Shown: positions 3,160 through 13,269 of the stretch, piece after piece
Layout of the letters: the number at the start of each line of letters is the position of its first letter
How positions within the stretch are numbered: position 1 is the first letter of the stretch
Origin: Candidatus Naiadarchaeum limnaeum
Lineage (GTDB): Archaea; Undinarchaeota; Undinarchaeia; Undinarchaeales; Naiadarchaeaceae
Assembly: GCA_014189685.1 (NCBI GenBank)
Contig: DVAB01000033.1
Coordinates: 2,298-34,297 of the forward strand
Direction of reading: 5' to 3'
Length of the DNA stretch: 32,000 nucleotides
The notes under the pieces: generated by a model
What the model was told of the DNA's origin: nothing
What the model saw: the letters and a program-made list of their open reading frames with translations, nothing else
Databases searched by the model: none
Position numbers and translations under genes: made by a program

Positions 3160-4037
3160 TGACCCGCTTTGATATTCTCCTAAAAGGAAAGTTAACTCCA
3201 ACAGAGCGAAAAAAATTGCGCACTTCTTTAGACATTCTTGGCGAAATTGCAATAGTTGAAATTCCTCGCGAACTCTCAAAAAGATCTAGTGTAATTGGAA
3301 CAGCAATTCTAAAAGCAAACCCACAATTAAGAGCTGTTTTCAAAAAGGCCACTCCTGTGCGCGGAGAATTTAGAATTCGCGGTCTAAAGAGGATTGCAGG
3401 AAAAGGCGGGACTCTAATAACTTACAGGGAAAATACTTGCGCATTTAAGTTTGATATAGCAAAAGTTTTCTTTACCCCAAGAATGAGCTCTGAGCGTCTC
3501 AGGGTTGCAAGACAAATTAAAAATGGAGAAATTGTTGTTGATATGTTTGCAGGAGTCGGCCCGTTTGCAATCTTAATTGCAAAAACTCAGCCCCATGTTG
3601 GAATGATTCATGTTATTGACTCAAACCCAGAGGCAATAAAATACTTGCTTGAAAGCGCCTCAATGAATAAAATTTCCCATAAAATAAGCGCCTATATCGG
3701 AGATTCTCGTGCTGTAATTGAAGCTTACTTGATTGGCATCGCTGATCGAATTATAATGAATCTTCCTCTTACAGAGGAGCAGTTTTTTCCAAGCGCATTA
3801 AAAACTATCAAGAAAAGCGGCATTTTACATTTTTACACATTTGCAAAAACAGAAAAAGAAGTTCAGTCCAAAATAAGAAGATCTTTGCAAAAGCGAGCCA
3901 TATTTAAAATTCTAAAAATCAGAAAAGTTCGCCAATACGCTCCGCGAATCTGGAATTTTGTTGCAGATATAAGAATAGAGAGAAAACTTAATAAATCTCG
4001 CCAGGCCGCGAGTAGGCCAGGCCACATTCGCTCGTGA
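3159..4037 (+). CDS. trm5: tRNA (guanine37-N1)-methyltransferase Trm5 (Met-10+ family)
   Basis: [30 protein letters not shown] and the SAM motif [13 protein letters not shown] are typical of archaeal Trm5/Taw22. The last 13 codons (3996-4034) are encoded by repeat copy B. Confidence 0.85.
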
Positions 4038-6575: not shown

Positions 6576-8303
6576 ATGACTCCAGAATTACTGCTCGAGC
6601 AAAAGATAAAGGAAGTAAATGAAGTTCTTACTTACGAAAAGCTGAGTGAAATTGTCGGGCAAAAACTTTCTACTACTTATACTGCAGATCTACCTCACAA
6701 AACTCAGTCTCTCTGCCCAGAGTGCACTCGAATTTTAGATTCAATTGTTTATGCTGAAAACAACCGCGTTTACATTCTACGGAAATGCCCAGAGCATGGC
6801 GAAATTAAAGAGGTTTACTGGGAAGACCTGGAGATGTACAATAAAGCAAAGGGCTTTGGAACTAAACCAAAACAATTAGAGAATCCAAACATGCGTTTAC
6901 TTCCGAATTTAGGAGCGAACTGCCCAACCGATTGTGGACTTTGCCGCCGCCATAAGTCCCATACTGCCCTAGGAAATATTGTTGTCACAAACCGCTGCGA
7001 TTTAAGCTGCTGGTATTGCTTCTTCTATGCAAAAGAGGGCGAGCCAATCTACGAGCCCTCAATCCAGCTTTTGAAAAACATGCTTCTTGACTATAGAAAC
7101 GAGCGCCCTGTTCCGACAAATGCAATTCAAATCACCGGAGGCGAACCTTCTATAAGAGATGACATAGTTGATATCGTACGCATGACAAAATCAATTGGAT
7201 TTGACCATATTCAATTCAATACAAATGGAATAACAGTTGCTCACAAAGGCCCTGAATTTGCAAAAGCTCTCCGCGAGGCTGGAGCAAATGTTATTTACAT
7301 GAGTTTTGATGGCGTTTCCCCGCGCACAAATCCAAAGAACCACTGGGAAGTTCCATATGCTCTTGATGCTTACCGCGCTGCAAAGCAGCATGTTGTTCTT
7401 GTCCCGACTGTAATTAGAAGTGTTAACGACCACGAAGTTGGGCAGATGATTAATTTTGGGCTAAATAATTTAGACGCTGTAAAAGCAGTTAACTTCCAGC
7501 CTGTTTCTCTTGTTGGAAGAATGCCGGCTAGAGTTCGCGAAAGACAGAGAATAACAATCCCTGGAACAATCCGTGCAATTGAAGAGCAAACGAACGGAGC
7601 AATCGCAAGAGAAGACTGGTTTACAGTTCCGTGTGTTTCTAGAATTACACACTTTATCGAGGCAATAACAAAGAAAGCCCAGTACGATTTGACAATTCAT
7701 TTTGCCTGCGGAATGGGTTCATATGTTTATCTCGATAGAGAAAAAGAAAAGGTAATTCCAATTACACGATTTATAGATGTTGAAAGTTTGACTGAGTATT
7801 TGGACACATTAGCTGAGGAAATCCAAGCAGGAAAAATGACAAAGGCAGGCGCAGGCGCAAGATTACTTTTGAAACTTAAATCATTTACTGACAGCAAAAA
7901 CACTCCAAAGGACTTCAAGTTTTCAAGATTACTCTGGAATATGCTCATAAAGCACGATTACTCTGCTGTCGGCGAATTGCAGACAAAAATGATGTTCATT
8001 GGAATGATGCACTTTATGGACAAGTACAACTATGATATTGAGCGCGTAGAAAGATGTGACATTCACTATGTAATGCCAGATGGCAGAATTTTGCCTTTCT
8101 GCACATTCAATGTTATTCCAGAAATGTATCGCGATAAGGTGCAATCTCAATACTCAATGAGTGTGAAGGAATGGGGCTCAAGACAAAACAAGGCTGATTT
8201 CAAGTACGAGGACGATAAGTATCACAGAGATATTAAAAAATTAACAGAGGGCGCGCCGTATCAGAAAGCTTACAAACAGCAAACGAATTATTTCCAGGCT
8301 TAA
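6576..8303 (+). CDS. tes: Radical SAM enzyme of the COG1964 family, tetraether lipid synthase (Tes / GDGT-MAS)-like
   Basis: N-terminal Zn-ribbon/rubredoxin-like CPEC..x21..CPEHG, an auxiliary CPTDCGLCRRH, and the radical SAM motif NRCDLSCWYC, followed by ITGGEP. The ~575-aa length and domain order match the MJ0619/Tes family from memory. Confidence 0.6.
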   Translation: MTPELLLEQKIKEVNEVLTYEKLSEIVGQKLSTTYTADLPHKTQSLCPECTRILDSIVYAENNRVYILRKCPEHGEIKEVYWEDLEMYNKAKGFGTKPKQLENPNMRLLPNLGANCPTDCGLCRRHKSHTALGNIVVTNRCDLSCWYCFFYAKEGEPIYEPSIQLLKNMLLDYRNERPVPTNAIQITGGEPSIRDDIVDIVRMTKSIGFDHIQFNTNGITVAHKGPEFAKALREAGANVIYMSFDGVSPRTNPKNHWEVPYALDAYRAAKQHVVLVPTVIRSVNDHEVGQMINFGLNNLDAVKAVNFQPVSLVGRMPARVRERQRITIPGTIRAIEEQTNGAIAREDWFTVPCVSRITHFIEAITKKAQYDLTIHFACGMGSYVYLDREKEKVIPITRFIDVESLTEYLDTLAEEIQAGKMTKAGAGARLLLKLKSFTDSKNTPKDFKFSRLLWNMLIKHDYSAVGELQTKMMFIGMMHFMDKYNYDIERVERCDIHYVMPDGRILPFCTFNVIPEMYRDKVQSQYSMSVKEWGSRQNKADFKYEDDKYHRDIKKLTEGAPYQKAYKQQTNYFQA

Positions 8304-12126: not shown

Positions 12127-13163
12127 TTCTTAATCCCTTTCGTTAGCACTTCACACCCATCTTTTGTAACTAAAATATCATCCTCAATTCTAACCCCAAA
12201 TTTTCCGCTCAAATAAATTCCGGGCTCAATGGTACAGATCATATTTTCTTTTAAAATCTCTTTGCTTTTTTCAGCAATTGCAGGCGCCTCATGAATTTCC
12301 AATCCAATCCCATGGCCCGTTGAATGAATAAATTTGTAACCTTTTTTCTTCAATTCGCCGCGCACAAAGTTATCAATCGCGTTTGCCTTAACTCCTGGTT
12401 TGACTTTTTCAATTGCTTTTTCCTGGACATTTAAAACTAAATCATAAATTTTTTCAAATTCAGTATCATTTTCTTTTAAAGAAAAAGTTCTTGTCACATC
12501 TGCATGATATCCTTTGTAAGCAGCCCCAGAATCGATAAGCAATGCCCCATTTCCATTGTTCAAAGTTGTTTTTGCATGCGGCAAAGCAGAATTGGAATCA
12601 TAAGCAACAATAGGATCAAAAGCTAATTTCGCGTTGTTTTGCGCACAAATAAATCCAATATCTGCAGAAATTTGCGTTTCATTTTTTGAAAAATCCAAAT
12701 TTTGATAAAATTTTGCAGTTATATTCGCAGCTTTTTTAATTAAAGCAATTTCTCCCTGAGTTTTTATTATTCTTAAATTTTTTATAGCGCTGCTAAAATC
12801 AGTCAACTTTAATTTAGCCTTTAATTTTTCAAAAGTATTTGCTGGCAAAAATTCCCCATTAATTCCAACTTTTTTCCCTCTTAAACTTTTTGTTATATTT
12901 TCAAGAGTCTTTTGTTTTGGCAATTCTTCTATTTGTTTTATCCAAGTTTCTTTTTCACAGCGCTCAATTTCAAATTGCGGCAAATATAATTTTTCGAAAT
13001 CCTTCCCTATTATTGCATAGGAATGCTCAACCCATTCAATTCCTGTAAAATAGTAAAGTGTGTTATCAATATGCTCAGAGCTAAAATTAATCAAAAGTAA
13101 AGCATCCAGCTTTTTCTTTTCCAATTCTTTTCTCAGATTTTCAGTTTGTTCTTTTCCAATCAT
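12123..13163 (-). CDS. M24-family Xaa-Pro aminopeptidase/dipeptidase
   Basis: Creatinase-like N-domain plus a pita-bread fold with metal ligands in order (IDSGAAYKGYHADVTRT, HSTGHGIGLEIHE, TIEPGIY, RIEDD). ATGA overlap with mpg. Confidence 0.85.
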   Translation of the reverse strand: MIGKEQTENLRKELEKKKLDALLLINFSSEHIDNTLYYFTGIEWVEHSYAIIGKDFEKLYLPQFEIERCEKETWIKQIEELPKQKTLENITKSLRGKKVGINGEFLPANTFEKLKAKLKLTDFSSAIKNLRIIKTQGEIALIKKAANITAKFYQNLDFSKNETQISADIGFICAQNNAKLAFDPIVAYDSNSALPHAKTTLNNGNGALLIDSGAAYKGYHADVTRTFSLKENDTEFEKIYDLVLNVQEKAIEKVKPGVKANAIDNFVRGELKKKGYKFIHSTGHGIGLEIHEAPAIAEKSKEILKENMICTIEPGIYLSGKFGVRIEDDILVTKDGCEVLTKGIKK

Positions 13164-13269
13164 TCTCGCCAGGCCGCGAGTAGGCCGGACTACATTAGGG
13201 GCATGCTCGCTTCTTTAAAGTTTATGAGCTCGCAGCCCCTAAATAGGCCTCTCGTCTCCTTCTATTTTT
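13164..13269. repeat. GC-rich structured element, copy C (candidate small RNA or 5' leader; strand unresolved)
   Basis: Starts at the base next to the peptidase start codon. The 23-mer is identical to copy B. A 5-bp closing helix (13182-13186/13246-13250) encloses the hairpin AGGGGC-AT-GCTC..GAGC-TCGCA-GCCCCT (13197-13240) shared with copy A. Ends in CTTCTATTTTT (13259-13269). Confidence 0.6.

Follow-up and report, generated by a model that had tools for sequence, protein, structure and literature searches.

What is the GC-rich, strongly structured segment that separates a tRNA-Leu gene from the start codon of an M24 aminopeptidase P gene in the archaeon Candidatus Naiadarchaeum limnaeum? We analyzed 32,000 nucleotides of contig DVAB01000033.1 (assembly GCA_014189685.1, positions 2,298 to 34,297; hereafter the window), in which this segment, copy C, is one of three related segments designated A, B, and C. 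An earlier reading of the window, made without database searches, proposed that copy C forms a structured 5′ leader of the peptidase mRNA and also pointed to an insertion hotspot beside the tRNA gene. We consider it probable that copy C arose by insertion of a non-coding, GC-rich element that is modular and present in multiple copies, and that this element is a non-autonomous mobile one. Members of the family, which is apparently undescribed, occur in Naiadarchaeales (Undinarchaeota) and in related archaea of groundwater: no published description of such elements was found, and the genome paper that describes this taxon of the DPANN archaea (PMC7414124) contains no mention of transposases, CRISPR, introns, or mobile elements.

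The spacer between the peptidase and tRNA-Leu genes

The peptidase gene occupies 12123‒13163 on the minus strand, and its ATG (CAT at 13161‒13163 on the plus strand) abuts copy C. The tRNA-Leu(CAG) gene (13299/13300‒13385) lies upstream on the same strand. Relatives were fetched via the peptidase protein, and the fetched loci or contigs are given L numbers (L011 is GCA_037442905.1). The spacer between the peptidase ATG and the tRNA gene is 135 nt in the window versus 11 nt in L011, whose peptidase is 87% identical and has the same start codon context, and 12 nt between the ATG and tRNA-Leu in L012 (76% identical). Because the orthologous spacer is only 11‒12 nt in these two closest relatives, copy C is, on this comparison, an inserted element. 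In L013 (peptidase 52% identical), the same peptidase/tRNA-Leu spacer measures ~200 nt and holds a different family member resembling copy B. In the comparison of this spacer among relatives, proposed with the sequence-only reading, the element is missing from L011 and L012 and a different family member is present in L013, a pattern that bears out the suggestion of an inserted element at a hotspot beside the tRNA gene. L011 lacks copy C yet carries a C-like copy beside a mazEF cassette, as found by BLAST of the fetched loci. In L014 and L019, the tRNA-Leu gene and the peptidase are separated by other genes, and a different gene stands upstream of the peptidase in L017, where no tRNA gene was found. 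The tRNA gene next to the peptidase has a short intron in relatives: that of L012 (232‒340) is tRNA-Leu(CAG) with a 23-nt intron, and a different intron-containing tRNA occupies this place in L011 (~1222‒1342), for which the ARAGORN label tRNA-SeC is doubtful.

Copy C extends from 13165 to ~13264 on the plus strand. Its 5′ end, CTCGCCAGG, was set by analogy with copy B and the copy in L044 and is one of the two precise ends of the family, and its 3′ boundary is uncertain, between 13250 and 13264. The sequence features from which the earlier reading started were recovered. The 23-mer TCTCGCCAGGCCGCGAGTAGGCC (13164‒13186, plus strand), a short form of the type II 5′ module described below, contains the hairpin CTCGC-CAGGCC-GCGAG, touches the peptidase start codon, and recurs exactly at 3996‒4018 in copy B (two exact matches against none expected from shuffles). 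The 5-bp outer helix AGGCC/GGCCT, read from the sequence and from folding, pairs 13182‒13186 with 13246‒13250 and encloses the hairpin AGGGGC-AT-GCTC-(17 nt)-GAGC-TCGCA-GCCCCT, read at 13197‒13240. On the 3′ side of the hairpin follow TAAAT and the T-run CTTCTATTTTT, from which the end of tRNA-Leu is 31 nt away, and the minus strand carries the TATA-like sequence CTTATATAAAAATC (reverse complement of 13286‒13299) just 3′ of tRNA-Leu, its function being predicted only.

Within the outer helix, the conserved unpaired motif GGACTACATT (13187‒13196) is identical in L011, L044, L051, and L060a and takes the form GGACTACGTT in L013b. It is followed by the closing stem P, TAGGGGC/GCCCCTA (13196‒13202 with 13235‒13241), which covaries over 11 copies, and by the inner hairpin X (13203‒13234), consisting of AT-GCTCGC, the AT-rich loop TTCTTTAAAGTTTAT, and then GAGCTCGCA. 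The motifs ATKCTCGC and GCTCGMA of hairpin X are common to C, A, L011, L044, L051, L059, and L060a. The conserved 3′ motif AAATAGGCC (13241‒13249) is shared with L011, L051, L060a, and a fragment in L095, and appears as AAATAGGCA in L013b. The folding energy of copy C is −38.4 kcal/mol on the plus strand (z −3.6 versus shuffles) and −38.8 kcal/mol on the minus strand (z −3.0). The sole strain single-nucleotide polymorphism (SNP) in copy C, C13186T in L009, keeps the outer helix pair as U·G on the plus strand, and one SNP proves nothing about the constrained strand.

The insertion would have moved tRNA-Leu and the sequence downstream of it ~115 nt away from the peptidase ATG. Because tRNA-Leu lies on the same strand and the minus strand between it and the ATG has no run of five or more T, the antisense of copy C may have been dragged into the peptidase 5′ untranslated region (UTR) as a by-product. 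The antisense strand probably now belongs to this 5′ UTR or to a tRNA trailer, as a side effect and not as an evolved leader. Since the spacers of L011 and L012 leave no room for a promoter, the peptidase mRNA in these relatives probably begins with, or is cut from, the tRNA transcript. The arrangement of tRNA and peptidase on the same strand, 11‒12 nt apart, suggests a tRNA-mRNA co-transcript in which processing of the tRNA 3′ end makes the mRNA 5′ end.

A modular family with a conserved fold

The family comprises at least 14 copies in at least nine contigs. The three copies in the window, about one per 10 kb, are all on the plus strand and form G+C peaks in a genome of ~38% G+C. Copies A (2414‒2537) and B (3997‒4149), which the earlier reading had already delimited, are both real. 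Copy A has a type I 5′ module ((A)CAGCTT...AAGCTGGCAC), the P stem AGGGGGC/GCCCCCT, and the tail CTTTTATTTTTCCCTGAGGTGCC, and copy B has the shared 23-mer, the P stem AGGCCAC/GTGGCCT around three hairpins, and a T-rich tail. The hairpin GGGGC-AT.CTCGC...GAGCTCG.A-GCCCC is common to A and C, and the tail CTTTTATTTTT to A and B. We built a covariance model, R1, from six other copies, three of them with inserted modules trimmed and C left out. Its best match in 185 kb is 13180‒13254, within copy C, at 80.6 bits (E ~1e-17), and it has no match in L012, L014, L017, L019, or L020; copy A, which was in the training set, matches at 54.3 bits. Judged by a covariance model that never saw it, copy C is a clear family member.

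The 5′ ends of the family are precise and of two kinds, a hairpin CAGCYK...GCTGGCRC (type I) and the module CTCGCCAGG..CCGCGAGTAGGCC (type II), the two parts of which are separated by a 45-nt insert in L044. After the 5′ end often come GGACTACATT, a stem P of 6‒7 bp, and the inner hairpin X (ATKCTCGC...GCTCGMA). An optional pair of hairpins, GCGAAACC-NNN-GGTTTCGC and (C)AnnnAGGAAC-NNN-GTTCCTnnnTG, occurs in either order and even outside stem P. The 3′ part is either AAATAGGCC or a tail CTACTTTTATTTTTGCC...GGTGCC, and the 3′ ends vary between copies. When the ends of A, B, L011, L034, L044, and L049 were compared by eye, no terminal inverted repeats were found, with at most four of five terminal bases complementary.

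Compensatory variation in stem P was counted on 11 copies, in an alignment with the variable interior removed, and compared with 500 shuffles. All seven pairs have changed on both sides, against a shuffle mean of 4.8 (5 of 500 shuffles as high), and 24 cells are doubly changed. Standard pairs fill 98.7% of the cells versus 65.4% after shuffling, a percentage inflated by the choice of the P stems by eye as complementary segments beside the conserved motifs. The covariation score is 0.888 versus 0.28 in the shuffles, none of which is as high, and a shift of the 3′ partner by one column lowers pairing to 47‒56%. By reading, the outer parts of both optional hairpins also vary in a compensatory manner, as does the type I 5′ stem (CAGCCG/CGGCTG, CAGCTG/CAGCTG, and CAGCTT/AAGCTG). 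By these counts, compensatory changes have preserved a defined fold in the family. The wobble pairs, also by reading, conflict as to which strand is constrained, with about seven positions favoring the plus strand and five favoring the minus strand.

When metagenomes were scanned for the two-hairpin pattern of copy B, 82 loci came up. About a dozen of them are true relatives, several from the same Joint Genome Institute (JGI) sample series as the organism of the window; the others are genes for penicillin-binding proteins of bacteria and a tandem hairpin repeat unrelated to the family. L060a, the L095 fragment, and the second L013 copy were found through motif searches and the covariance model. 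A separate metagenome scan with the A/C hairpin pattern gave no match; since this pattern matches L010, that contig lies outside the collection. A 19-mer searched against the genome collection gave only five chance matches in high-GC bacteria, and three scans of viral contigs gave no match. Rfam searches of the window at the gathering threshold, of A, B, and C at E up to 10, and of six other copies at E up to 1 returned only tRNA. A DUF805b match at 13119‒13154 was below threshold and within the peptidase gene and was discarded. By eye, copy C has no pseudouridylation pocket of the H/ACA type, no RUGAUGA/CUGA pair of the C/D box type, and no tandem G·A pairs of a K-turn, and these three readings were rejected.

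Several further structured sequences were observed beside the family. In L095 (2976‒3725), a 5′-truncated family fragment (TTTGTTGGCTCGCAAGCCCCTAAATAGGCCTAC) directly follows the stop codon of a Cas4-like PD-(D/E)XK nuclease gene, and a full family copy lies ~450 nt beyond it. A hairpin with a compensatory stem and the conserved loop GAGYGNWARCGA, for example CCATCTT-GAGTGAAACGA-AAGATGG, recurs in L058, L059, L060 (~2880‒2910), and L013 (6100‒6123); the loop GCGAGTA of the 23-mer in copies B and C looks like a shortened form of this hairpin. L022, L046, L052, L054, L075, L085, L098, and other AT-rich freshwater contigs contain tandem units of 73‒74 nt, each made of two perfect hairpins, GAAACC-GTA-GGTTTC and GGGAAC-N5-GTTCCC, single copies of which occur in many further contigs.

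Flanking repeats and target sites

Six copies are abutted by direct repeats, with lengths of 15, 16, 17, 21, 21, and 27 bp. Copy B is flanked by a perfect 15/15-bp repeat, GAAAACTTAATAAAT (3982‒3996 and 4150‒4164), and the repeats of copy A (2394‒2413 and 2538‒2559) match at 18/21 positions. The matches are 15/16 in L044, 25/27 in L034, 18/21 in L011, and, by reading, 16/17 in L013b. Against sites drawn at random from the same contigs, also when these were restricted to AT-rich ones, the repeats of B, L044, L034, L011, and A stand out (null fraction at most 0.0007). Because the repeats differ from site to site, they are shown to be duplicated target, separate from the element itself. In B, L011, and L013b, they include the final codons of a gene; in A, B, and L034, they contain the TATA-like region of the following gene, and in L044 they lie just upstream of that region. 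The genes adjoining the family copies are housekeeping genes, among them those for leucyl-tRNA synthetase (LeuRS), CorA, UDP-glucose dehydrogenase, a Cas4-like nuclease, and NAD kinase, and no transposase, integrase, reverse transcriptase, or Cas1 was seen among these neighboring genes.

Copy B displaced the stop codon of the gene for the tRNA methyltransferase TYW2. The orthologues end in ...KVNK*, the window protein continues from ...KLNK with 13 element-encoded residues, and deletion of 3997‒4164 restores the end ...KLNK-TAG. Copy B therefore appears to have landed on the stop codon, with the duplication keeping the frame nearly intact. This TYW2/Trm5-like gene (3159‒4037) is annotated with 292 residues versus 343‒346 in the orthologues, the N-terminal Trm5_N part being missing. 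The spacer of copy B, without the element and the repeat, would be 27‒37 nt, and TYW2 and the next gene are 25‒28 nt apart in L014 and L017 and overlap in L019. Likewise, the spacer of copy A, between the S-layer gene and a 190-aa gene, is 252 nt, or 107 nt without the element and the repeat, and measures 95‒110 nt in L014, L017, and L019. On these spacer comparisons, copies A and B are lineage-specific.

One target site appears empty in the window. The sequence TTTATTTCAGAATTCTCGGCAT (9070‒9091, plus strand), at the 3′ end of a 102-aa gene, is unoccupied here, and a family member stands at this gene end in L011 and in L013, in the latter with a fresh-looking 17-bp duplication. Two syntenic sites, the 3′ end of the 102-aa gene and the peptidase/tRNA-Leu spacer, are thus each occupied in two lineages. 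Both of the two L013 copies are at sites used in another lineage, more than we would expect from random insertion, although this is an unquantified impression; such repeated occupation of two sites across distant lineages offers a handle on target choice. In L011 (~5470‒6365), a mazE/pemK pair lies beside the family element in the order repeat, element, repeat, mazEF, repeat, and the bracketing repeats are ~20‒40 bp of the target sequence from the 3′ end of the 102-aa gene.

One copy resides in a tRNA intron. On the minus strand of L051 (8472‒8762), ARAGORN with introns allowed identifies tRNA-Trp(CCA) with a 215-nt intron, of which the family element makes up nucleotides 2‒166, starting 1 nt after the 5′ splice site. 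The last 49 nt of the intron read UUUGGAGCG-CUGA...UGAUGA and pair with the anticodon loop such that C34 stands opposite the fifth base upstream of CUGA, an arrangement that we take to be that of the known tRNA-Trp intron C/D guide for 2′-O-methylation of C34 (Cm34). Because these remaining 49 nt already look like the usual guide, the simpler explanation is that the element inserted into an intron already present. Bulge-helix-bulge motifs were sought at the ends of 12 copies; the scan gave inconsistent AT-rich chance matches and also missed the control, a real tRNA-Trp intron.

The neighboring genes in the window are archaeal and include those for aEF-1 beta, FEN1, the S-layer protein, and TYW2/Trm5. 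The earlier reading described most genes in the window as apparently leaderless or short-leadered; purine-rich Shine-Dalgarno-like stretches (GGGGAG and AAGG) lie just upstream of the ATG in at least two neighboring genes. The next 10 kb of the contig past the window contain a tightly packed sugar-biosynthesis operon and no further copy. At 6576‒8303, the window has one open reading frame (ORF) of 575 aa. Its source contig L006 has two called genes there, one for a 407-aa radical SAM protein and the other for a 150-aa zinc-ribbon protein, and L017 has a single fused gene of 516 aa; gene models at this place vary among assemblies or annotations.

Mobilization, rival explanations, and known systems

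How could such an element spread? A trans-acting enzyme would recognize the folded 5′ part and insert a copy into AT-rich boundary DNA between genes, at nicks staggered by 15‒27 bp. Owing to the long duplication, a gene would survive an insertion into its stop codon or promoter. Several points weigh against a mobile element. The mobilization step is pure inference, terminal inverted repeats are absent, and no transposase, integrase, or reverse transcriptase was found among the neighboring genes; the range of repeat lengths (15‒27 bp) is unlike that of a single dedicated DDE transposase. Copy C itself has no significant flanking repeat: its gapped flank score is 12 (null fraction 0.27‒0.44), and the candidate right repeat TTTTTAATAGCATT (13265‒13278, plus strand), compared with TTTTCCAATCATT at 13152‒13164, is not statistically supported. 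With no target duplication detected, C is likely an older copy. No significant flanking repeat was found in L040, L049, L059, L060a, or L013a either, and these copies may likewise be older or, like C, may have misplaced boundaries. No filled-versus-empty polymorphism was seen within the species, as all five assemblies carry C, and the protein cluster of TYW2 contains only the 292-aa form and no empty-site allele. Because the mazEF cassette in L011 is bracketed by the same repeat as the element, the duplication may come from an insertion or repair route that the host uses generally. The copies beyond the window were all located by family motifs or by synteny. Finally, the P stems were chosen by eye, and a family of functional RNA genes would likewise account for a fold and motifs so well kept.

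This last possibility, a true small RNA gene family, is rather unlikely. Each copy would be transcribed, probably from the plus strand, starting from the TATA-like sequence borne by the duplication and terminating at the T-run. Once folded, the RNA would bind a protein or work in trans, and mobility would amount to gene spread only. The strong compensatory variation in stem P and the conserved unpaired motifs GGACTACATT and AAATAGGCC are consistent with such an RNA, as are runs of five T at or near the plus-strand 3′ end of A, B, C, L040, L049, and L059, the TATA-like, AT-rich stretch within the left-hand repeats of A, B, L034, and L044, the U·G pair retained with the L009 SNP, and the plus-strand GGCGC/GTGCC wobble pairs in L049, L059, and L051. 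However, orthology between species is shown for none of the copies, A, B, and C are absent in relatives, and the DNA upstream of C on the plus strand is peptidase coding sequence with nothing promoter-like. The TATA-like boxes, 5‒20 nt from the element start, would moreover yield transcripts without the conserved 5′ module, the wobble positions conflict (about seven G·U versus five A·C on the plus strand, with three type I 5′ stems favoring the minus strand), and Rfam returned no match. The minus strand is the one concerned in the sequence-only proposal of a cis-acting 5′ leader that regulates the peptidase, which we now regard as very improbable. Copy C does abut the ATG, folds stably and beyond shuffles on that strand (−38.8 kcal/mol, z −3.0), and lies between the ATG and a TATA-like box after the tRNA, with no minus-strand T5 terminator in between. 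A dedicated leader is nevertheless to be rejected because the family also occurs after stop codons, in unrelated promoter regions, and in the tRNA-Trp intron, with close copies beside unrelated genes; L011 and L012 lack copy C upstream of their peptidase gene, no Shine-Dalgarno-like sequence lies near the ATG, and no riboswitch or leader family matches.

The remaining alternatives concern the route of mobility. Least probable of all is a mobile archaeal bulge-helix-bulge intron, which the tRNA splicing endonuclease would excise and which would hence be tolerated in gene ends and tRNA. The L051 element does begin 1 nt past a 5′ splice site, and by reading, the type I 5′ terminal stem and the 3′ GYGCC would stack on one continuous strand and bring the ends together. 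On the other hand, the guide-like remainder of the L051 intron and the duplications of flanking DNA, unexpected from reverse splicing, argue against it; the scan of the 12 copies, which missed the control intron too, found only inconsistent matches. Copying through an RNA intermediate, in the manner of a short interspersed nuclear element (SINE), or joining by an integrase of low end specificity, such as a Cas1-type casposase, would explain the long duplications and the asymmetric ends. The duplications of 15, 16, 17, 21, 21, and 27 bp at AT-rich sites and the combination of one precise and one variable end without inverted repeats point in this direction, and casposon duplications span 1‒27 bp with a median of 15 (PMC4046053). 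Against this, no reverse transcriptase or Cas1 gene was found among the genes neighboring any copy, the copies share no A-rich or otherwise common 3′ tail, and casposons have inverted repeats of 25‒602 nt; we therefore judge this origin distinctly doubtful. That these are the first archaeal elements whose spread, in the form of folded nucleic acid, needs no classical transposase is a related and rather unlikely proposal. By an RNA-copying route, the precise end would correspond to the 3′ terminal hairpin of the minus strand, where copying could start, and the variable end to a variable 5′ end; by an integrase route, an enzyme of low end specificity would make cuts staggered by 15‒27 bp at AT-rich gene boundaries. 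If true, a streamlined DPANN genome would harbor an active, structured, selfish RNA-like element at about one copy per 10 kb in the window.

The insertion of a non-autonomous mobile element, which we favor for copy C, has consequences for how these genomes are read. DPANN archaea have very small genomes that are usually described as streamlined, and a dense family of structured insertions, with three copies in 32 kb, would mean that their intergenic DNA is actively remodeled. Some ORFs would be miscalled, as in TYW2 with its 13 spurious codons from copy B, and GC-rich islands in these genomes should not be read as gene-specific regulatory RNAs.

Among known systems, prokaryotic MITEs (miniature inverted-repeat transposable elements), such as the Sulfolobus SM elements, are small non-coding repeats with target duplications and no enzyme of their own. 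The present element resembles them in its size (100‒230 bp), non-coding nature, multiple copies between genes or at gene ends, target duplications, and lack of an enzyme. It differs in having no terminal inverted repeats, asymmetric ends, no known parent insertion sequence, and long, variable duplications (15‒27 bp), whereas those of MITEs are short and fixed. Modular structured repeats of bacteria, such as the pneumococcal BOX elements, the repetitive extragenic palindromes and bacterial interspersed mosaic elements (REP/BIME), and the Correia/NEMIS elements, likewise combine interchangeable hairpin modules into a stable fold, lie between genes, and can be co-transcribed with neighboring genes and alter their transcripts. 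The present element is archaeal, unrelated in sequence, and provided with long target duplications and a compensatory closing stem, and one copy lies in a tRNA intron. Archaeal tRNA introns, including the tRNA-Trp intron with its C/D guide, share with the family the one copy at nucleotides 2‒166 of the 215-nt intron, but the other copies lie in non-intron DNA with duplications at the DNA level, and no consistent bulge-helix-bulge was found at their ends in the scan that missed its control. Eukaryotic SINE-type retroposons are short structured non-coding units that use an enzyme supplied in trans, and we know of no such precedent in Archaea. Variable-length duplications at AT-rich targets, one defined end, and dependence on a trans enzyme would be common to both; unlike SINEs, the element has no A-rich tail, its 3′ ends differ between copies, and no internal promoter is known.

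Casposons resemble the element in being archaeal, in duplications of around 15 bp, and in their frequent location at gene 3′ ends, but are several kb long, encode Cas1 and a DNA polymerase, and have inverted repeats, none of which the element shares (PMC4046053). They are the nearest archaeal precedent for its duplications; their Cas1 gene and long inverted repeats place the element outside that group. To our knowledge, no archaeal transposon class combines long, variable duplications, an absence of inverted repeats, and a compensatory fold, and the mobilizing enzyme, once identified, could reveal a new insertion mechanism.

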